A DNA stretch of 64,000 nt from Escherichia coli (lineage in GTDB: Bacteria > Pseudomonadota > Gammaproteobacteria > Enterobacterales > Enterobacteriaceae). Shown here piece by piece: positions 8,455-56,800 of this stretch. The stretch is taken from the NCBI RefSeq assembly GCF_011045215.1, contig NZ_CP049201.1. One strand, written 5' to 3'. Below the pieces are notes generated by a model that was not told where the DNA came from, made no database searches, and saw only the letters and a list, made by a program, of their open reading frames with translations. The position numbers and the translations under genes were made by a program. Position 1 is the stretch's first letter; each line of letters begins with the position of its first letter.

Positions 8455-8568
8455 GGGGGCTCTGTTGGTTCTCCCGCAACGCTACTCTGTTTACCAGGTC
8501 AGGTCCGGAAGGAAGCAGCCAAGGCAGATGACGCGTGTGCCGGGATGTAGCTGGCAGGGCCCCCACCC
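8455..8568 (+). ncRNA. ffs: 4.5S RNA (SRP RNA)
   Basis: Sequence reads GGGGGCTCTGTTGGTTCTCCCGCAACGC...GGAAGGAAGCAGCCAAGGCAGA...GGGCCCCCACCC, matching the 114-nt 4.5S RNA including the conserved domain IV loop; located between atl and ybaA. Confidence 0.93.
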
Positions 8569-24098: not shown

Positions 24099-26030
24099 AT
24101 GAGTTATCAGGTCTTAGCCCGAAAATGGCGCCCACAAACCTTTGCTGACGTCGTCGGCCAGGAACATGTGCTGACCGCACTGGCGAACGGCTTGTCGTTA
24201 GGGCGTATTCATCATGCTTATCTTTTTTCCGGCACCCGTGGCGTCGGAAAAACCTCTATCGCCCGACTGCTGGCGAAGGGGCTAAACTGCGAAACCGGCA
24301 TTACCGCGACGCCGTGCGGCGTGTGCGATAACTGTCGTGAAATCGAGCAGGGGCGCTTTGTCGATCTGATTGAAATCGACGCCGCCTCGCGCACCAAAGT
24401 TGAAGATACCCGCGACCTGCTGGATAACGTCCAGTACGCTCCGGCGCGTGGTCGTTTCAAAGTTTATCTCATCGACGAAGTGCATATGCTGTCGCGCCAC
24501 AGCTTTAACGCACTGTTAAAAACTCTTGAAGAGCCGCCGGAGCACGTTAAGTTTCTGCTGGCGACGACCGATCCACAGAAATTGCCGGTGACGATTTTGT
24601 CGCGCTGTTTGCAATTTCATCTCAAGGCGCTGGATGTCGAGCAAATTCGCCATCAGCTTGAGCACATCCTCAACGAAGAACATATCGCTCACGAGCCGCG
24701 GGCGCTGCAATTGCTGGCACGCGCCGCTGAAGGCAGCCTGCGAGATGCCTTAAGTCTGACCGACCAGGCGATTGCCAGCGGTGACGGCCAGGTTTCAACC
24801 CAGGCGGTCAGTGCGATGCTGGGTACGCTTGACGACGATCAGGCGCTGTCGCTGGTTGAAGCGATGGTCGAGGCCAACGGCGAGCGCGTAATGGCGCTGA
24901 TTAATGAAGCCGCTGCCCGTGGTATCGAGTGGGAAGCGTTGCTGGTGGAAATGCTCGGCCTGTTGCATCGTATTGCGATGGTACAACTTTCGCCTGCTGC
25001 ACTTGGCAACGACATGGCCGCCATCGAGCTGCGGATGCGTGAACTGGCGCGCACCATACCGCCGACGGATATTCAGCTTTACTATCAGACGCTGTTGATT
25101 GGTCGCAAAGAATTACCGTATGCGCCGGACCGCCGCATGGGCGTTGAGATGACGCTGCTGCGCACGCTGGCGTTCCATCCGCGTATGCCGCTGCCTGAGC
25201 CAGAAGTGCCACGCCAGTCCTTTGCACCCGTCGCGCCAACGGCAGTAATGACGCCAACCCAGGTGCCGCCGCAACCGCAATCAGCGCCGCAGCAGGCACC
25301 GACTGTACCGCTCCCGGAAACCACCAGCCAGGTGCTGGCGGCGCGCCAGCAGTTGCAGCGCGTGCAGGGAGCAACCAAAGCAAAAAAGAGTGAACCGGCA
25401 GCCGCTACCCGCGCGCGGCCGGTGAATAACGCTGCGCTGGAAAGACTGGCTTCGGTCACCGATCGCGTTCAGGCGCGTCCGGTGCCATCGGCGCTGGAAA
25501 AAGCGCCAGCTAAAAAAGAAGCGTATCGCTGGAAGGCTACCACTCCGGTGATGCAGCAAAAAGAAGTGGTCGCCACGCCGAAGGCGCTGAAAAAAGCGCT
25601 GGAACATGAAAAAACGCCGGAACTGGCGGCGAAGCTAGCGGCAGAAGCCATTGAGCGCGACCCGTGGGCGGCACAGGTGAGCCAACTTTCGCTACCAAAA
25701 CTGGTCGAACAGGTGGCGTTAAATGCCTGGAAAGAGGAGAGCGACAACGCAGTATGTCTGCATTTGCGCTCCTCTCAGCGGCATTTGAACAACCGAGGTG
25801 CACAGCAAAAACTGGCTGAAGCGTTGAGCACGTTAAAAGGTTCAACGGTTGAACTGACTATCGTTGAAGATGATAATCCCGCGGTGCGTACGCCGCTGGA
25901 ATGGCGTCAGGCGATATACGAAGAAAAACTTGCGCAGGCGCGCGAGTCCATTATTGCGGATAATAATATTCAGACCCTGCGTCGGTTCTTCGATGCGGAG
26001 CTGGATGAAGACAGTATCCGCCCCATTTGA
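24099..26030 (+). CDS. dnaX: DNA polymerase III subunits tau (full length) and gamma (by frameshift)
   Basis: 643-aa ORF, AAA+ clamp-loader Walker A GTRGVGKTS; the internal slippery site yields gamma. Confidence 0.97.
   Translation: MSYQVLARKWRPQTFADVVGQEHVLTALANGLSLGRIHHAYLFSGTRGVGKTSIARLLAKGLNCETGITATPCGVCDNCREIEQGRFVDLIEIDAASRTKVEDTRDLLDNVQYAPARGRFKVYLIDEVHMLSRHSFNALLKTLEEPPEHVKFLLATTDPQKLPVTILSRCLQFHLKALDVEQIRHQLEHILNEEHIAHEPRALQLLARAAEGSLRDALSLTDQAIASGDGQVSTQAVSAMLGTLDDDQALSLVEAMVEANGERVMALINEAAARGIEWEALLVEMLGLLHRIAMVQLSPAALGNDMAAIELRMRELARTIPPTDIQLYYQTLLIGRKELPYAPDRRMGVEMTLLRTLAFHPRMPLPEPEVPRQSFAPVAPTAVMTPTQVPPQPQSAPQQAPTVPLPETTSQVLAARQQLQRVQGATKAKKSEPAAATRARPVNNAALERLASVTDRVQARPVPSALEKAPAKKEAYRWKATTPVMQQKEVVATPKALKKALEHEKTPELAAKLAAEAIERDPWAAQVSQLSLPKLVEQVALNAWKEESDNAVCLHLRSSQRHLNNRGAQQKLAEALSTLKGSTVELTIVEDDNPAVRTPLEWRQAIYEEKLAQARESIIADNNIQTLRRFFDAELDEDSIRPI
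25382..25393 (+). promoter_or_regulatory. dnaX programmed -1 ribosomal frameshift site (A AAA AAG heptamer plus shifted-frame stop)
   Basis: AAAAAAG at 25382-25388 lies in the dnaX frame as A AAA AAG; the -1 frame reads AAA AAA GAG TGA; upstream SD-like AGGGAG and downstream GC stem-loop (ccggcagccgctacccgcgcgcggccgg). Confidence 0.9.
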
Positions 26031-26067
26031 TCGTAAGCACAGCTTACGTTCGTCATCCTTAACGTGA

Positions 26068-26411
<344 letters not shown>

Positions 26412-26412
<1 letters not shown>

Positions 26413-27017
26413 TGCAAACCAGCCCGCTGTTAACACAGCTTATGGAAGCACTGCGCTGTCTGCCGGGCGTGGGCCCGAAGTCGGCACAGCGTATGGCGTT
26501 CACGCTGCTTCAGCGCGATCGTAGCGGCGGGATGCGTCTGGCGCAGGCGCTCACCCGGGCGATGTCGGAAATCGGCCACTGCGCCGATTGCCGCACCTTC
26601 ACCGAACAGGAAGTCTGTAACATCTGTTCGAATCCGCGTCGTCAGGAAAACGGTCTAATCTGTGTGGTGGAGAGTCCGGCGGACATTTACGCCATTGAGC
26701 AGACGGGGCAGTTTTCAGGTCGTTATTTTGTGTTGATGGGACATCTGTCACCGCTGGACGGCATCGGTCCGGATGATATCGGGCTTGATCGTCTGGAACA
26801 GCGTCTGGCAGAGGAAAAAATCACTGAAGTGATCCTCGCCACCAATCCCACGGTTGAAGGTGAAGCTACCGCTAACTACATTGCCGAGCTTTGCGCGCAA
26901 TATGACGTGGAAGCCAGCCGAATCGCTCATGGCGTACCGGTTGGCGGCGAACTGGAAATGGTCGATGGCACCACGCTGTCACACTCCCTTGCCGGGCGTC
27001 ATAAGATTCGTTTTTAA
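26412..27017 (+). CDS. recR: recombination protein RecR
   Basis: 201-aa ORF with C4 zinc-finger ([16 protein letters not shown]) and Toprim domain; start overlaps the ybaB stop (TGATG). Confidence 0.95.
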
Positions 27018-27046
27018 GCAAACGAGAGCAGGATCACCTGCTCTCG

Positions 27047-27075
27047 CTTGAAATTATTCTCCTTTGTCCCCATCT
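27047..27075 (+). promoter_or_regulatory. sigma32 heat-shock promoter of htpG
   Basis: CTTGAAA at 27047-27053 and CCCCATCT at 27068-27075 with 14-nt spacer, matching the sigma32 consensus CTTGAAA-N13-15-CCCCATNT. Confidence 0.75.
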
Positions 27076-27126
27076 CTCCCTCATCCTGTTTTTAACCTTA
27101 AAATGGCATTATTGAGGTAGACCTAC

Positions 27127-29001
27127 ATGAAAGGACAAGAAACTCGTGGTTTTCAGTCAGAAGTGAAACAGCTTCTGCACCTGATGATCCATTCTCTCTA
27201 TTCCAATAAAGAAATCTTCCTGCGTGAGCTTATCTCTAACGCCTCCGATGCGGCGGACAAGCTGCGTTTCCGCGCGCTCTCTAACCCGGACCTGTACGAA
27301 GGTGATGGCGAACTGCGCGTTCGTGTCTCTTTCGATAAAGACAAGCGCACGCTGACCATCTCCGATAACGGCGTGGGGATGACCCGCGACGAAGTGATTG
27401 ACCATCTGGGGACTATCGCTAAATCCGGTACCAAATCATTCCTCGAATCCCTGGGTTCTGACCAGGCGAAAGACAGCCAGCTGATCGGTCAGTTTGGTGT
27501 TGGTTTCTACTCTGCGTTTATCGTGGCCGACAAAGTGACCGTGCGTACTCGCGCGGCAGGCGAAAAACCAGAAAACGGCGTCTTCTGGGAATCGGCTGGC
27601 GAAGGTGAATACACCGTTGCCGACATCACCAAAGAAGATCGTGGTACTGAAATCACCCTGCATCTGCGTGAAGGCGAAGACGAGTTCCTCGATGACTGGC
27701 GCGTGCGTTCCATCATCAGCAAATACTCCGACCATATCGCGCTGCCGGTAGAGATCGAAAAACGCGAAGAGAAAGATGGCGAAACCGTTATCTCCTGGGA
27801 AAAAATCAACAAAGCGCAGGCGCTGTGGACTCGTAACAAGTCGGAAATCACCGATGAAGAGTATAAAGAGTTCTACAAACACATCGCCCACGACTTTAAC
27901 GATCCGCTGACCTGGAGCCACAACCGCGTTGAAGGTAAGCAGGAGTACACCAGCCTGCTGTACATCCCGTCCCAGGCTCCGTGGGATATGTGGAACCGTG
28001 ATCATAAACACGGCCTGAAACTGTATGTTCAGCGTGTGTTCATCATGGACGACGCAGAACAGTTCATGCCGAACTATCTGCGCTTCGTGCGTGGTCTGAT
28101 TGACTCCAGCGATCTGCCGCTGAACGTTTCCCGTGAAATCCTCCAGGACAGCACGGTAACGCGTAACCTGCGCAATGCGCTGACCAAGCGTGTGCTGCAA
28201 ATGCTGGAAAAACTGGCGAAAGACGACGCGGAAAAATACCAGACCTTCTGGCAACAGTTTGGCCTGGTACTGAAAGAAGGTCCGGCGGAAGATTTCGCTA
28301 ACCAGGAAGCGATCGCCAAATTGCTGCGTTTTGCTTCTACCCATACCGATTCTTCTGCGCAGACCGTGTCTCTGGAAGACTACGTTTCCCGCATGAAAGA
28401 AGGGCAGGAGAAAATCTACTACATCACCGCAGACAGCTATGCGGCAGCGAAGAGCAGCCCGCACCTGGAACTGCTGCGTAAGAAAGGCATCGAAGTTCTG
28501 CTGCTTTCCGACCGCATCGATGAGTGGATGATGAACTATCTGACTGAGTTCGATGGCAAGCCGTTCCAGTCGGTGTCTAAAGTTGACGAGTCGCTGGAAA
28601 AACTGGCTGACGAAGTTGATGAGAGCGCGAAAGAAGCGGAGAAAGCACTGACTCCGTTCATCGACCGTGTGAAAGCCCTGCTCGGCGAGCGCGTGAAAGA
28701 TGTCCGTCTGACTCACCGTCTGACCGATACGCCAGCGATTGTCTCTACCGATGCGGACGAAATGAGCACTCAGATGGCGAAACTGTTTGCCGCAGCGGGC
28801 CAGAAAGTGCCGGAAGTGAAATATATCTTCGAACTGAACCCGGATCACGTACTGGTGAAACGTGCGGCAGATACTGAAGATGAAGCGAAGTTCAGCGAGT
28901 GGGTAGAACTGCTGCTGGATCAGGCGCTGCTGGCAGAACGCGGCACGCTGGAAGATCCGAACCTGTTTATTCGTCGTATGAACCAGCTGCTGGTTTCCTG
29001 A
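27127..29001 (+). CDS. htpG: Hsp90-family chaperone HtpG
   Basis: 624-aa ORF with GHKL ATPase N-terminal domain motifs ([20 protein letters not shown]). Confidence 0.97.
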
Positions 29002-29007
29002 TGTAAT

Positions 29008-29044
29008 GCCGGATGACCTTCGTGTCATCCGGCATTTTTCTTTT
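29008..29044 (+). terminator. rho-independent terminator of htpG
   Basis: Hairpin gccggatgaccttcgtgtcatccggc followed by a T-rich run. Confidence 0.8.
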
Positions 29045-29109
29045 CATTATCTGCACTTTCCGCAAATTATCTCGCCATTAACCGTTTCAGCCCCTGGTGC
29101 CTTTCTTGA

Positions 29110-29826
<717 letters not shown>

Positions 29827-33344: not shown

Positions 33345-33435
33345 TCGTAGGCCAGATAAGGCGTTCACGCCGCATCTGGCATTTGGCATCTCGATGCCTG
33401 ATGCGACGCTGGCGCGTCTTATCATGCCTACATAT
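33345..33435. repeat. REP element pair downstream of gsk
   Basis: cgtaggccagataaggcgttcacgccgcatctggca ... gcctgatgcgacgctggcgcgtcttatcatgcctac, REP consensus in inverted orientation. Confidence 0.8.
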
Positions 33436-39107: not shown

Positions 39108-39191
39108 ACACCGTCGCTTAAAGTGACGGCATAATAATAAAAAAATGAAATTCCTCTTTGACGGGCCAATAGCGATATTGGCCATTTTTTT
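39108..39191 (+). ncRNA. chiX: small regulatory RNA ChiX (MicM/SroB)
   Basis: Sequence ACACCGTCGCTTAAAGTGACGGCATAATAATAAAAAAATGAAATTCCTCTTTGACGGGCCAATAGCGATATTGGCCATTTTTTT: 5-prime hairpin, A-rich seed region, terminator hairpin plus U-run; located in the ybaK-ybaP intergenic region where ChiX is encoded. Confidence 0.85.
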
Positions 39192-40484: not shown

Positions 40485-41030
40485 CGTAGGCCGGATAAGG
40501 CGTTCACGCCGCATCCGGCATCCGAGCACCATTGCCTGATGCGACGCTTACGCGTCTTATCAGGCCTACAAACCTGTGCCTGAACCGTAGGCCGGAGAAG
40601 GCGTTCACGCCGCATCCGGCATCCGAGCACCATTGCCTGATGCGACGCTTACGCGTCTTATCAGGCCTACAAACCTGTGCCTGAACCGTAGGCCGGAGAA
40701 GGCGTTCACGCCGCATCCGGCATCCGAGCACCATTGCCTGATGCGACGCTTACGCGTCTTATCAGGCCTACAAACCTGTGCCTGAACCGTAGGCCGGAGA
40801 AGGCGTTCACGCCGCATCCGGCATCCGAGCACCATTGCCTGATGCGACGCTTACGCGTCTTATCAGGCCTACAAACCTGTGCCTGAACCGTAGGCCGGAG
40901 AAGGCGTTCACGCCGCATCCGGCATCCGAGCACCATTGCCTGATGCGACGCTTACGCGTCTTATCAGGCCTACAAACCTGTGCCTGAACCGTAGGCCGGA
41001 GAAGGCGTTCACACCGCATCCGGCAGTCAT
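40485..41030. repeat. tandem array of REP-containing units (BIME-like), five full 101-bp copies plus a degenerate sixth
   Basis: Unit cgtaggccggagaaggcgttcacgccgcatccggcatccgagcaccattgcctgatgcgacgcttacgcgtcttatcaggcctacaaacctgtgcctgaac recurs starting at 40485, 40586, 40687, 40788, 40889 (period exactly 101 bp); generates the identical 76-aa track ORFs on the minus strand. Confidence 0.9.
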
Positions 41031-47870: not shown

Positions 47871-50800
47871 ATGAGCCTGATTATTGATGTTATTTCGCGT
47901 AAAACATCCGTCAAACAAACGCTGATTAATCCTGGCGACGTCACGGTTGTTATTTATGAGCCTTCCGTGGTGCAGGTTCATGCTCAGGCCTCTGCCGTTG
48001 CGCGTTACGTCCGTGAAGGAAATGACCTGCTGATCTATTTGCAGGACGGCACGGTGATCCGCTGCAACGGTTATTTCCTGCAAGCGGCGAATACAGCTGA
48101 ACAATCGGAACTGGTGTTTGCCGATGGTCAACAGCTAACCCATGTCACCTTCGCCGATACTGCTGCGGGTGGATTAGCCCCCGTAGAACTGACTGCCCAG
48201 ACCACTGCGATTGAAAGCATTGCGCCATTTCTTGATACCGTTGCTCAGACCAGCGCCTTCCCGTGGGGTTGGCTGGCGGGGGCGGCGGTAGGTGGCGGTG
48301 CGCTTGGTGCACTGCTGGCAAGCGGTGGCGATGGCGACTCGAAAACAGAAGTGATTAATAACCCTACGCCACCTGCTGAGCCTGGCAACGCCACACCATC
48401 ATTTTTAGTTACCGATAATCAGGGCGATCAGCGCGGCATTCTCGCCACCAATGACATCACCGATGACACCACGCCAACCTTTAGCGGCAGCGGGCAGGCG
48501 GGGGCGACTATTCAGATTAAAGACAGTAACGGCAATACTATTGCCAGTACTCAGGTAGACAACAACGGTCACTGGAGTGTCTCGTTACCCACGCAAAGTG
48601 CAGGTGAACATACCTGGTCAGTGGTGCAAATTGTCGGCAGTACCATCACTGACGCCGGTTCGATAACGTTAACCATCGACAATAGTCAGGCCAGCGTGCA
48701 GGTTGCCACCACCGCAGGCGATAACATTATTAACGCCAGCGAACAGGCCGCCGGGTTTACGCTTTCTGGCACCAGTAGCCATCTGGCACAGGGAACAGAA
48801 CTCACCGTCACACTTAACGGCAAAACCTACACCACCAGCGTAGGCGCTAACGGTGCCTGGAGCGTGCAGGTGCCGACCGCCGATGCACAGGCGTTAGGCG
48901 AAGGGAATCAGGCGGTACTGGTCAGTGGGAAAGACACCACAGGCAATACGGTCACCGGCGCGCAGCTGCTAACGGTCGATACCCAACCGCCAACGCTTGC
49001 CATCAACACCATCGCTCAGGACAACATCATCAGTGCTGCGGAACATAACGTCGCGCTGGTACTGAGCGGCACGTCGAATGCAGAAGCGGGGCAAACCGTA
49101 ACACTGACCGTCAACGGGAAAAGCCATACAGCAACCGTCGGTAGCGACGGAACCTGGCAAGTGACGCTGCCTGCCACGGAAGTCCAGGCACTGGCGGAGG
49201 GTAATTACGCTGTCAATGCCAGTGTCAGCGATCGGGCAGGGAACACCACCAGCCACAGCGCGAATCTCACGGTAGACACCTCAGCACCCGTGGTCAGTGT
49301 TAATACCGTGGCGGGCGACGATATTCTTAATAATGCCGAGCAGGCCGTCGCGCAGATCATCTCCGGACAAGTTAGCGGTGCTTCTCCTGGCGATACGGTA
49401 ACGGTGAAATTGGGCACTCATGTCCTGACGGGCATCGTGCTGGCAGATGGCAGCTGGAATGTGGCGTTGGACCCGGCGGTAACCCGCACGCTGGATCGCG
49501 GAGCCAATACGATTTTCGTCACCGTGACAGATGCTGCAGGAAATACTGGCGCGGCGTCTCGAGCAATCACGCTGGTCGGTGTTTCTCCGTTGATCACCAT
49601 TAACACCGTCTCCGGCGATGACATTATCAGTGGCGCAGAAAAAGGTGCGCCACTGACCCTTACCGGTAGCACTCAACAGGCTGAGACAGGACAAACCGTC
49701 ACAGTAACCCTGGCTGGACAGAGTTTTACCACTACCGTGCAGGCCGATGGCTCCTGGAGTCTGACGGTACCTGCCGCCGCGATGGGAAATCTGCCTGACG
49801 GCGCGGTGGCGATTACCGCTTCTGTGACGGATCTCAGCGGCAATACCGGCAACACCTCCCGCACCATTACCGTCGACAGCCAGGCCCCGGCCTTAAGCAT
49901 TGATCCACTGACCGCTGATAACATCATTAACGCCGCCGAAAGCGGGCAGGATCTGCCCATCACCGGCACCACCGACGCTCAGCCGGGGCAGACGGTGACC
50001 GTTACGTTAAATGGGCAGACGTATCAGGGCGTCGTGCAGCCAGACGGCACCTGGAGCGTGACTGTGCCCGCCGCCAACGTGGGCGCACTGGCTGACGGCA
50101 ACGCTACGGTCACCGCCAACGTGAACGATGTCGCCGGTAATCCGAGCAGCGTCTCACGCGTGGCGCTGGTCGATGCCACGCCGCCGGTGGTGACCATTAA
50201 TCCGGTGGCGACCGATAACGTCATTAACACGCCGGAACATACCCAGGCGCAAATCATCAGCGGTACGGTTACTGGCGCTCAGGCGGGCGATATCGTCACC
50301 GTGACGCTGAATAATGTGAATTACACCACGGTGGTGGATGGTTCCGGCAACTGGAGCCTGGGCGTTCCGGCCTCGGTGGTCAGTGGGCTGGCGGACGGCA
50401 GTTATCCTGTCAGCGTCTCGGTAACCGACAAAGCCGGAAACACGGGCAGCCAGTCACTGACTGTCACGGTCAATACCGCAGCGCCCCTTATCGGCATTAA
50501 CAGCATTGCGGGCGATGATGTGATTAATGCCAGCGAAAAAGGGGCCGATCTCCAGATTACCGGCACCAGCGATCAGCCAGTGGGTACCGCCATCACCGTG
50601 ACGCTCAACGGGCAAAACTATGCGGCGACGACCGATGCCTCCGGCAACTGGAGCGTCAACGTTCCGGCATCGGCGGTAACCGCACTGGGCCAGGCCAACT
50701 ACACGGTAACGGCGGCGGTAACCAGCGATATCGGCAACAGCACCACCGCCAGCCATAATGTGCTGGTCGACAGCGCGCTGCCCGGCGTGACCATTAACCC

Positions 50801-53800
50801 GGTGGCAACCGATGATATTATTAACGCCGCCGAAGCGGGCGTGGCGCAAACCATCAGCGGGCAGGTGACTGGAACCGCCGTTGGCGACGCGGTAACCGTG
50901 ACGCTGGGCGGTAATACCTACACCACCACCGTGCAGGCCGGCTTAAGCTGGAGCGTGGACGTTCCGGCGGACGCTATTCAGGCGCTGGGTAATGGCGATT
51001 TAACGGTTAATGCCTCGGTCACCAATCAAAACGGCAACACCGGCAGCGGCACGCGGGATATCACCATCGACGCCAATCTGCCCGGCCTGCGGGTCGATAC
51101 GGTGGCGGGCGATGATGTGGTCAATATCATCGAGCACGGGCAGGCGCTGGTGATTACCGGCAGCAGTTCGGGGCTGGCAGAAGGCACGCCGCTTACCGTT
51201 ACGATTAATAATGTGGAATACACCACTGCGGTGCAGGCCGATGGTAGCTGGAGCGTGGGCGTCACGGCGGCGCAGGTTAGCGCCTGGCCTGCGGGGACGG
51301 TTAATATTGCCGTGTCCGGGGAAAGTAGCGCCGGAAATCCGATAAGCATTACGCATCCGGTAACGGTGGATCTCACTCCGGCGGCTATCACCATCAACAC
51401 TATCGCCACGGACGATGTGATTAACGCTGCAGAAAAAGGGGCTAATTTAACTCTTTCCGGCACCACCACTAACGTAGAAGCAGGGCAAACCGTCACTGTC
51501 ACCTTTGGCGGTAAAAATTACACCGCCAGCGTGGCGGGCGATGGTAGCTGGACTGCCACCGTTCCCGCCGCCGATCTGGCGGCATTACCGGAAGGCAGCG
51601 CCTCCGCTCAGGCCAGCGTCAGCAATATCAACGGCAATAGCGCCTCGGCGGTGCATAACTACAGCGTCGACAGCAGCGCGCCAACCATCATTATCAATAC
51701 CGTCGCCAGCGACAATATCGTCAACGCCAGCGAAGCCGATGCGGGTGTGACGGTGAGCGGCAGCACCACCGCTGAAGCGGGGCAGATTGTTACGGTAACG
51801 CTCAATAGCCCGACCGTGCAGACGTATCAGGCAACGGTACAGGCGGACGGCAGCTGGAGCATCAATATTCCGGCGGCAGATCTTGAGGCATTGACCGATG
51901 GCAGCCACACCCTGACCGCGACGGTCAATGACAAAGCGGGCAACCCGGCGAGCACCACGCATAATCTGGCGGTGGATCTCACCGTCCCGGTACTCACCAT
52001 CAATACCATTGCGGGCGATGACATTATTAACGCCGCCGAGCACGGACAGGCGCTGGTGATTTCTGGTTCCAGCACAGGCGGAGAGGCGGGAGATGTCGTC
52101 ACCGTCACGCTAAACAGTAAAACCTACACCACGACGCTGGATGCCTCCGGCAACTGGAGCGTCGGTGTTCCGGCGGCGGATGTCACCGCGCTGGGTAGCG
52201 GCCCGCAAACCATCACTGCCAGCATTACCGATGCGGCAGGTAATAGCGACAGCGAAACGCACACGGTCACCGTTAACCTTACCGCGCCGACCATTGGCAT
52301 TAACACCATCGCCACCGATGACGTGATTAATGCCACCGAAAAAGGCGCAGATCTGCAAATCTCCGGCACCAGTAATCAGCCAGCGGGCACCACGATTACG
52401 CTGACGTTTAACGGGCAAAATTACACCGCCACGACGGACGCCGCAGGTAACTGGAGCACCACGGTGCCAGCCTCTGCCGTCGGTGCGCTGGGCGAAGCCA
52501 GCTACACGGTGACGGCGAACGTCACCGACAGCGCAGGCAACAGCAATTCCGCCAGCCATAACGTGCAGGTCAATACCGCGCAGCCTGGCGTCACCATTAA
52601 TCCGGTTGCGACTGACGATATTATTAACGCCGCCGAATCGGGCAATGCGCAAACCATCAGCGGTCAGGTAACGGGCGCGGCGGCGGGCGATACCGTCACC
52701 GTGACGCTTGGCGGGAAAACCTACACGGCTACCGTGCAGGGGAATCTAAGCTGGAGCGTGGATGTTCCGGCTGCGGATATTCAGGCCATCGGTAATGGCG
52801 ACCTGACTGTTAACGCCTCAGTGACCAACGGCGTTGGCAATACCGGCAGCGGTTCGCGAGATATTACTATCGACGCCAACCTGCCTGGCCTGCGCGTCGA
52901 TACCGTGGCGGGCGATGATGTGGTTAACAGCATCGAACACGGTCAGGCACTGGTGATAACTGGTAGCAGCAGCGGGCTGGCGGTGGGCGCGGCGCTGACG
53001 GTGGTGATCAATAACGTCACCTATGGCGCGACAGTATTAGCCGATGGCACATGGAGCGTTGGTGTTCCGGCGGTAGACGTGAGTAACTGGCCTGCGGGTA
53101 CGGTGAATATCACGGTAAGTGGCACTAACACAGCCGGAACAACATCCACCATTACCCATCCGGTCACCGTCGATCTGGCGGCGGTGGTGATTTCCATTAA
53201 CACCATCTCCGGCGATGATGTGATTAACGCCGCCGAAAAAGGGGCAGATTTAACCCTTTCCGGCAGCACCTCCGGCGTAGAGCCAGGGCAAACGGTCACC
53301 GTCACCTTTGGCGGCAAAACCTACACCGCCACCGTAGCAGGCGATGGTAGCTGGACAACCACCGTACCTGCCGCCGATCTCAGCGTGTTACGCGACGGCG
53401 ACGCCACGGTACAGGCCAGCGTCAGCACTATTAACGGCAACACGGCTTCGGCAACCCACGCTTACAGCGTTGATGCCACTGCCCCGACGCTTGCCATTAA
53501 TACCATCGCCACCGACGATATTCTGAACGCCGCCGAGGCGGGCAATCCGCTAACCATCAGCGGCAGTAGCACCGCTGAAGCGGGGCAGACGGTAACTGTC
53601 ACGCTTAATGGCGTGACTTACACCGGCACCGTCCTGGCGGACGGGAGCTGGAGCGTCAGCGTGCCGACGGCGGATCTCAGCAATCTGACCGCCAGCCAGT
53701 ACACCGTCAGCGCCTCGGTAAACGATAAAGCGGGTAACCCGGCATCCACCACTCACGGGCTGGCGGTGGATCTCACCGTGCCGGTGCTGACCATCAACAC

Positions 53801-56800
53801 CGTCTCCGGCGATGACATTATTAACGCCGCCGAACACGGACAGGCGCTGGTGATCTCCGGCTCCAGTACTGGCGGCGAAGCGGGCGATGTCATCACCGTC
53901 ACGTTAAACAGTAAAACCTACACCACCACGCTGGATGCCTCCGGTAACTGGAGCGTCGGCGTTCCGGCGGCAGATGTCACCGCACTTGGCAGCGGCCCGC
54001 AAACCATCACGGCCACGATTACGGATATCGCGGGTAATAGCGATGATGCTAGCCGCACGGTCACCGTAAATCTCACCGCGCCAACCATTGGCATCAACAC
54101 CATCGCCACCGATGACGTGATTAACGCCACGGAAAAAGGCGCGGATCTGCAAATTACCGGCACCAGTAATCAGCCCGCGGGCACCACCATTACGGTGACG
54201 TTGAACGGGCAAAATTACACCGCTACTACCGATAGCAACGGCAACTGGAGCGCCACGGTGCCAGCGTCAGCGGTTAGCACGCTGGGTGAAGCTAACTACA
54301 CGGTAACCGCGAACGTCACCGACAGCGCAGGTAACAGCAATTCCGCCAGTCATAACGTGCTGGTCAACAGCGCCTTGCCTGCCGTCACCATTAACGCGGT
54401 GGCGACCGACGATATTATTAACGCTGCCGAAGCGGGCAATGCGCAAACCATCAGCGGGCAGGTGACGGGTGCCGCGGCGGGCGACACGGTTACCGTTACG
54501 CTGGGCGGCAACACCTACACCGCTACCGTACAGGCTAATTTAAGCTGGAGCGTTAGCGTGCCAGCGGCGGATATTCAGGCGCTGGGCAACGGCGACCTGA
54601 CAATTAATGCCTCGGTCACTAACGTCGTCGGCAACACCGGCAGCGGCTCGCGCGATATCACGATCGACGCCAATCTGCCTGGCTTACGGGTCGATACCGT
54701 GGCGGGCGATGATGTGATTAACAGCATTGAGCACAATCAGGCGCTGGTGATCACCGGTAGCAGCACCGGGCTGACGGCGGGAACGGCGTTAACGGTCGAG
54801 ATTAACAACGTTACTTATGGCGCGACGGTGTTAGCCGACGGCACATGGAACCTCGGTGTTCCGGCGGCAGACGTCAGCAACTGGCCTGCGGGTACGGTGG
54901 ATATCACGGTAAGCGGCACCAACAGCGCCGGAACAACCTCCACCATTACCCATCCGGTTACCGTCGATCTGTCGGCAGTCGCCATCACCATTAACACTCT
55001 CTCTGGTGATGATGTGATCAACGCCGTCGAAAAAGGCGAAACGCTGGTCGTAAGCGGCAGCACCAGCGGTGTCGAAGCCGGGCAAACGGTGACCGTCACC
55101 TTTGGCGGCAAAAATTACACCACCACTGTGGAAGCTAACGGTAGCTGGACGGTGAACGTACCGCCTGCCGATCTCGCTGCGCTACCGGACGGTGCGGGCA
55201 ACGTGCAGGCGAGTGTCAGCAACATCAACGGCAATAACGCCCAGGCGGATCGTACGTACAGCGTCGATGCCACCGCGCCACTTGTGACCATCAACACCAT
55301 CGCCAGCGACGATATCCTTAACGTGAGCGAAGCTGGCGCGGGGATCACCATCAGCGGCACTACCACGGCGCAGGCCGGGCAGACGCTGACCGTCACGCTC
55401 AATAATAACACGTACCAGACCACGGTTCAGGCGGATGGCACCTGGAGCGTGAATGTTCCGGCAGCGGATTTAAGCGGATTAACCGCCAGCAGTTACACCG
55501 TGACCGCCACGGTGAGCGACAAAGCGGGTAACCCGGCAAGCGCCGACCACGCGCTGGCGGTGGACGTTACCGCACCGGATCTCACCATTAATACCGTCGC
55601 GGGCGATGACATTATTAATGCCATCGAACACGGTCAGGCGCTGGTCGTCAGCGGAACCAGCACGGGCGCGGCGGCGGGTGATGTGGTCACGGTTAACCTG
55701 AACGGTAAAAACTACACCACCACGCTGGATGCCTCCGGTAACTGGAGCGTGGGCATTCCTGCGGTGGATGTGACGGCGCTGGCAACCGGCAACCAGACCA
55801 TTACCGCCAGCCTGAGCGATCGCGCGGGCAACAGCGACAGCACGACTCACAATGTGACCGTTGATCTCAGCGGCCCGACGCTGACCATCAACACCGTCTC
55901 CGGCGATGACATTATTAATAATGCGGAGAAAACCCAGGACTTGATCATCAGCGGCGGCTCCAGCGGTCTGGCGGCAGGCACTACGGTCACCGTGATGTTG
56001 AACGGCCTGGCGTACAGCGCTACTACCGACGGCTCCGGCAACTGGAGCGTTACCGTGCCTGCTTCTTCGGTTGGCGCGCTCGGCGAGGCGGTGTATCAGA
56101 TTAGCGCCAGCGCCACCGACAGCGCGGGCAACAGTGGCAGCACCACCCATACGGTGAATGTCGAATCGCTCCTGCCTGGGGTAATCATTAATACCGTGGC
56201 GGGCGATGACATTATCAACGCCGCTGAAATCGCTGTGGCGCAGACCATCAGCGGTCAGGTCACGGGGACGGCGGTTGCGGGTAATACGGTGATTGTCACC
56301 ATTGGCGGCAATCAATATAACGCCACCGTGCAGTCAGATTTAAGCTGGAGCGTCAGCGTACCTGCGAACGTTTTGCAGGCGCTGGGCAACGGTGAACTGA
56401 CCATCAGCGCCTCGGTGACTAATTCCGCAAATAATACCGGCACCACAACGCACGACATCGTGATAGATGCCAACCTGCCAGGTCTGCGCGTCGATACCGT
56501 GGCAGGCGATGATGTGATTAACAGCATCGAGCACACTCAGGCGTTGGTGATCACCGGTAGCAGTAGCGGACTGGCGGCGGGCGCGGCGTTGACGGTGGTT
56601 ATCAATAGCGTCACCTACGGCGCAACGGTTTTAGCGGATGGTAGCTGGAGCGTTGGTGTTCCGGCGGCAGATGTCACAAACTGGCCTGCGGGGACGGTCA
56701 ATATTGCCGTCTCTGGCACCAACACCGCCGGAACGACAACCAGTATTACCCATCCGGTGACCGTCGATCTCGCAGCCGTGGCGATCACCATCAACACCCT

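Follow-up and report, generated by a model that had tools for sequence, protein, structure and literature searches.

In Escherichia coli, the heat-shock sigma factor σ32 (RpoH) is governed by an upstream control circuit that comprises the rpoH mRNA thermometer, feedback by DnaK/J and GroEL/S, and degradation by FtsH. The promoter of htpG, under the name 'C62.5', was reportedly a founding member of the heat-shock promoter consensus in the work of Cowing et al. 1985, which is also said to include in vitro transcription by Eσ32. The housekeeping promoters read by σ70 (TTGACA-N17-TATAAT) have the same two-block architecture, contacted by σ regions 4 and 2, and a related −35 element (TTGAAA in σ32 promoters versus TTGACA). 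Recognition by σ32 has been visualized on dnaK P1, the scaffold of a σ32 open complex solved by cryo-EM, in which CTTGAA occupies −35 to −30 and CCCCATTT occupies −15 to −8 (PMC10216364). The −35 consensus, 5'-CTTGAA-3', is read by σ32 region 4, and residue K130 contacts the C:G pairs of the 'extended −10' at −15 and −14 (PMC10216364). The Gross laboratory relied on 'the σ32-dependent htpG promoter' to report σ32 activity (PMC3866087). Several RpoH promoters had once been described for htpG, but ChIP-exo showed only one predominant RpoH site at this gene (PMC9104697). The htpG σ32 promoter is thus already known and is textbook material.

The stretch of DNA analysed here (64,000 nucleotides; hereafter, the window) is a part of the E. 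coli chromosome with the local gene order dnaX-ybaB-recR-htpG-adk-hemH, as determined from open reading frames, NCBIfam equivalogs and the RefSeq annotation. From the same sources, dnaX was located at 24099–26030, ybaB at 26083–26412, recR at 26412–27017 (stop codon 27015–27017) and adk at 29182–29826. The htpG coding sequence occupies 27127–29001 on the + strand, with its ATG at 27127 in the RefSeq annotation, and encodes a bacterial Hsp90 of 624 amino acids, identified by the HtpG equivalog NCBIfam NF003555 (861 bits, E = 2.9e-259). A terminator scan, checked against the sequence, placed a terminator-like hairpin with a 13-bp stem and a T-run at 29005–29046 (+ strand). Since this hairpin and T-run end the transcript, the htpG unit is monocistronic. 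A stretch of 351 nt around the promoter had a match in 5,424 of 5,426 complete E. coli genomes and was 100% identical to three E. coli genomes, among them O39:NM F8704-2.

The gap between recR and htpG measures 109 bp and contains the promoter motif, oriented towards htpG. Sequence reading and a pattern search located the full motif CTTGAAATTATTCTCCTTTGTCCCCATCT at 27047–27075 on the + strand. It consists of the σ32 −35 element CTTGAAA (27047–27053), the 14-nt spacer TTATTCTCCTTTGT (27054–27067) and the extended −10 plus core −10 block CCCCATCT (27068–27075). The initial annotation had proposed CTTGAAA-N14-CCCCATCT at precisely 27047–27075, approximately 50 nt upstream of the htpG start. Both statements held, as 51 nt separate the end of the −10 block from the ATG at 27127. 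The −35 element agrees with the CTTGAA(A) of σ32 promoters, CCCCATCT with their C-rich extended and core −10 (CCCCATnT), and the 14 nt between CTTGAAA and CCCC with their spacing of about 13–15 nt.

The window and K-12 share the locus, the −35 and −10 blocks, the 14-nt spacing and the base at which transcription starts. Over 136 nt the two sequences were 98.5% identical, with two differences, both outside the elements: at −20 (27063, the one SNP in the spacer) the window has T where K-12 has C, and at −2 (27081) it has T where K-12 has A. The −2 variant of the window (CCCTCA) is the form of the other Escherichia loci recovered (L002–L004), while other genera have CCTCAAC. The comparison with dnaK P1 was similarly close. 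Both promoters have the CTTGAA −35, CCCCATnT at −15 to −8 and an A as the start, 8 nt past the block. CTTGAA and CCCC are separated by 15 nt in htpG and by 14 nt in the scaffold of dnaK P1 (14 versus 13 nt when counted from CTTGAAA), and the discriminator sequences are unlike. In contrast to the TATAAT of σ70 promoters, the −10 of htpG is C-rich (CCCCATCT), and no σ70 binding is recorded at the htpG site.

The pattern CTTGAAA-N13-15-CCCCATNT occurred once in the 64-kb window when both strands were searched, and in none of 100 dinucleotide-preserving shuffles. Even with two mismatches permitted, the htpG promoter was the sole match in the window. A wider scan (spacers of 12–16 nt, up to three mismatches) found the htpG site with no mismatch, no site in the window with one or two mismatches, and 10 sites with three mismatches against a random expectation of about 20. 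This confirmed that the promoter motif is not a chance occurrence. The search for a second σ32 promoter for htpG likewise returned no other site with two or fewer mismatches anywhere in the window.

Two of the weak σ32-like matches, at 51434 and 53237, were identical because they lie in an array of coding repeats. This long array, at 50000–56000 and beyond, has repeats of approximately 300 nt (about 100 amino acids) with a super-period of approximately 1800 nt; one 60-nt repeat family alone is present in 17 copies, about 300 nt apart. The array resembles the gene of a giant, repetitive protein of the surface or adhesin type, which is not known to be present at that position in K-12. Several known RNA elements were also found in the window. 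These were the ffs gene for 4.5S SRP RNA (Rfam RF00169) at 8463–8559, the known DnaX programmed −1 ribosomal frameshifting element (RF00382, 96.8 bits) at 25363–25427 inside dnaX, and the sroB/ChiX small RNA gene (RF00368) at 39108–39191. Five tandem REP-type naRNA4/CssrE copies (RF02564) with a 101-nt period were located at 40489–40970, and a single further copy of this family at 33350–33428. The tandem array spans approximately 480 bp, whereas the intergenic space is only approximately 214 bp by the coordinates carried over from the F8704-2 annotation, so the copy number may differ between strains.

Conservation of the promoter was assessed with one genome per species, which gave 80 loci whose HtpG proteins were 89–100% identical. 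The sampled genera included Escherichia, Salmonella, Citrobacter, Klebsiella, Enterobacter, Kosakonia, Buttiauxella and Mangrovibacter. The common promoter architecture was present upstream of htpG in all 80 loci. G-CTTGAA was invariant across the 80 species (2.0 bits per column), and the seventh base of the −35 element was A in 79 of 81 sequences. The spacer was 14 nt long in 78 of the 81 sequences; in the remaining three it was one nucleotide shorter (13 nt). Most of its columns carried 0.3–0.8 bits, compared with 2.0 bits in the flanking elements; its length was kept while its letters were free to vary. The −10 block read CC(C/T)CA in 81 of 81 sequences, with the final T in 97%, and its variants were CCCCATCT (41 sequences), CCCCATTT (25), CCCCACTT (7), CCTCATAT (6), CCCCATTA (1) and CCCCATAA (1). 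The A at 27083, the start site, was kept in 96% of the 80 species. This pattern is a classic phylogenetic footprint, with two recognition elements held at a fixed distance.

Single-base maps of transcription start sites (TSSs) from K-12 were carried over to the window by alignment, and the experimental data considered here all come from K-12 and not from the window strain. The maps are transferable because the recR-htpG region of the window differs from that of K-12 at only two positions, both outside the blocks. Cho et al. 2014 (PMC3923258, Tables S4 and S6) mapped a TSS at 494300 with 29 reads by 5'-RACE-seq. The upstream 51-mer that they printed for this position ends with ...CTTGAAATTATTCTCCCTTGTCCCCATCTCTCCCACA (PMC3923258). 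Given its last letters, ...GCTTGAAATTATTCTCCCTTGTCCCCATCTCTCCCACA, the start is the final A. Cappable-seq, which captures only triphosphorylated 5' ends, placed the strongest local TSS at the same position, explicitly in U00096.2 coordinates; this TSS scored 125.2, while the ybaB promoter reached 10.3 and that of adk 105.7 (PMC4782308). By the printed 51-mer and the K-12 alignment, position 494300 is A27083 on the + strand of the window, 8 nt past the last T of CCCCATCT. With this A as +1, CCCCATCT spans −15 to −8 and CTTGAAA spans −36 to −30, so that the start mapped in K-12, not in the window strain, is at the right distance past the −10 element. The initial annotation had named a mapped start inconsistent with this −10 element as the result that would overturn its reading; the start at 494300 proved consistent with it. 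In Table S4 of Cho et al. 2014 (PMC3923258), 494300 is flagged for the stationary-phase library only and not for the heat-shock library. With this flag and only 29 reads, the table does not itself demonstrate heat induction at 494300. For a heat-shock promoter the missing flag is unexpected; its probable cause is low depth or filtering.

Some minor starts were also mapped downstream of A27083. Cappable-seq detected minor triphosphate ends at 494318 (score 3.2; window 27101) and 494328 (score 10.1; window 27111), and Cho et al. 2014 a minor start at 494336 (window 27119). A27083 is therefore not the sole initiation point. The start at 27111 lies 7 nt past a σ70-like −10 (TAAAAT, 27099–27104) that has no recognisable −35, and may represent weak, constitutive secondary initiation inside the htpG leader. 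Two low-read TSSs of Cho et al. within recR, at 493818 and 493832 (window 26601 and 26615), were rejected as significant promoters, being absent from Cappable-seq and having no σ32-like motif in their support. The supplementary tables of SMRT-Cappable-seq contained no htpG or recR rows.

The minor start at 27111 raises the question of whether htpG is driven by a σ70 promoter in its leader, or by read-through from ybaB-recR, the σ32 motif then being a chance match. Some read-through is conceivable since the hairpin at the end of recR lacks a T-run. However, the start at 27083 is approximately 12 times stronger than that at 27111, σ32 is the only sigma factor detected by ChIP-chip, and Term-seq places the primary 3' end of recR at 27049. 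Coincidence is further contradicted by the shuffles, none of which contained the motif, and by elements that are invariant across 80 species around a variable spacer. We therefore consider this explanation to have next to no chance of being correct.

A different possibility is that the promoter is dual, with the σ70 holoenzyme sharing the TTGAAA −35 and the start with σ32 and giving the strong basal signal at 37 °C. TTGAAA matches the σ70 −35 TTGACA at five of six positions, and extensive overlap between σ70 and σ32 promoters in E. coli, reportedly found by Wade et al. 2006, was counted in its favour. The Cappable-seq signal, too, is high (125) without heat shock (PMC4782308). Against this, the hexamers located 16–18 bp past TTGAAA (CCATCT, CATCTC and ATCTCT) are all poor matches to TATAAT, and a scan for σ70-type promoters over 26000–29500 called none. 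ChIP-chip recorded σ32 ('H') as the sole sigma factor at 494300, with no 'D' (PMC3923258). The basal activity of σ32 is sufficient for the use of this promoter as a reporter at normal temperature (PMC3866087). Given the poor −10 candidates and the lack of a σ70 ChIP signal, we judged it unlikely that a σ70 promoter overlaps the site and shares its start.

Taken with the mapped TSS, the σ32-only ChIP-chip signal, the register shared with dnaK P1 and the reporter use (PMC3866087), the proposal of the initial annotation that this is the htpG σ32 promoter is well supported. We regard it as practically certain that 27047–27075 is the established σ32 (RpoH)-dependent htpG promoter.

The −35 element directly abuts a second conserved feature. 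Between the recR stop codon and the −35, the 3' end of the recR mRNA forms a hairpin (27023–27046, + strand) with a 10-bp stem (CGAGAGCAGG/CCTGCTCTCG) and the loop ATCA, which reaches up to the −35 element at 27047. Its predicted folding energy was −22.6 kcal/mol (z = −5.6), and none of 200 shuffles was equally stable. Among 79 Enterobacteriaceae sequences, compensatory changes were found in 9 of 12 pairs; the sequence varied between genera while the pairing was kept. The hairpin is therefore a real RNA structure. Although it is G+C-rich, as expected of an intrinsic terminator, no U-tract follows right after the stem, which is followed by CTTGAAATTATTC, and for this reason the hairpin does not qualify as a canonical intrinsic terminator. 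It received no call in the terminator scan. In Term-seq data, the 'primary' recR 3' end is at 495042 in U00096.3 coordinates (PMC7815308). This position corresponds to window 27049, the second T of CTTGAAA, 3 nt past the stem. The recR mRNA thus ends inside the htpG −35 element, whether termination produces this end or the RNA is trimmed back as far as the hairpin.

That end point, inside CTTGAAA, could suggest that the conserved block is chiefly the tail of the recR terminator and that the conservation of GCTTGAAA derives from termination or 3'-end formation. In the minimum-free-energy fold, moreover, the stem is lengthened by pairing of UUUUUAAGC with GCUUGAAAU. The pairs of this extension, however, do not covary, being invariant on both sides, and an extended terminator stem in which the recR stop region pairs with the −35 is unsupported. 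A terminator tail also leaves unexplained the invariant CCCCAT at a fixed distance of 14 nt, the TSS at 27083 and the occupancy by σ32. As the chief reason for the conservation it is thus very improbable. The terminator and promoter roles of the conserved block are not mutually exclusive.

The htpG leader that begins at the σ32 start is 44 nt long (27083–27126, + strand), has the Shine-Dalgarno sequence GAGG at 27114–27117 and contains the minor TSSs. Its predicted fold was no better than those of shuffles (z = 0.37), no covarying pairs were found in 73 sequences, and the leader matched no Rfam family. On these three grounds an RNA thermometer or other structured leader was rejected.

The block around the start site (27077–27085) reads CCTCAAC in most genera, CCTCATC in the window and CCACATC in K-12. 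In the form found in most Enterobacteriaceae, CCTCAAC, it is exactly reverse-complementary to GTTGAGG, the conserved Shine-Dalgarno block (27111–27118). On modelling grounds we considered the idea that the promoter might be built so that only σ32-initiated htpG mRNA would be translated efficiently, and we hold it to be very unlikely. Initiation at the A would leave CCUC out of the σ32 transcript; a read-through RNA from recR would carry CCUC and could mask the Shine-Dalgarno sequence. In silico, the mean unpaired probability of the Shine-Dalgarno sequence over 73 sequences was 0.24 in the σ32 transcript and 0.05 in the read-through RNA; when the upstream part of the latter was shuffled, the value was 0.16. 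The predicted masking was modest, and the species in this comparison are not independent of each other. In E. coli, where the complement is degraded, the predicted accessibility was 0.12 or less for all three RNAs, for the window and K-12 alike, and no effect was predicted. Since both blocks (CCTCAAC and GTTGAGG) are invariant, covariation is no test of the masking. The conservation of CCTCAAC may simply reflect constraints on the start site or the discriminator.

For the σ32 promoter, the following course of events emerges, in which sequence, position, uniqueness and conservation were computed here, and the start site, the occupancy by and dependence on σ32, and the protein–DNA contacts are taken from the literature. 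RNA polymerase with σ32 binds CTTGAA(A) at 27047–27053 through σ region 4 and, across the 14-nt spacer, CCCCATCT at 27068–27075 through σ regions 3 and 2, which contact the extended −10 'CC' and the core −10. Eσ32 then melts the DNA from about −11 and initiates at A27083. The resulting htpG mRNA is monocistronic, has GAGG as its Shine-Dalgarno sequence in a leader of 44 nt, and ends at the hairpin and T-run at 29005–29046. Output tracks the amount and activity of σ32, being basal at 37 °C and rising in a transient burst upon heat shock or protein misfolding.

The value of the result lies in correct annotation only, for one of the founding examples of σ32 heat-shock promoters and a routine reporter of σ32 activity. 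Its confirmation shows that a promoter for an alternative sigma factor is recognisable from the letters of the DNA alone. The understanding of the heat-shock response is left unchanged, and the 109-bp gap between recR and htpG illustrates the tight packing of a promoter against a terminator-like structure.
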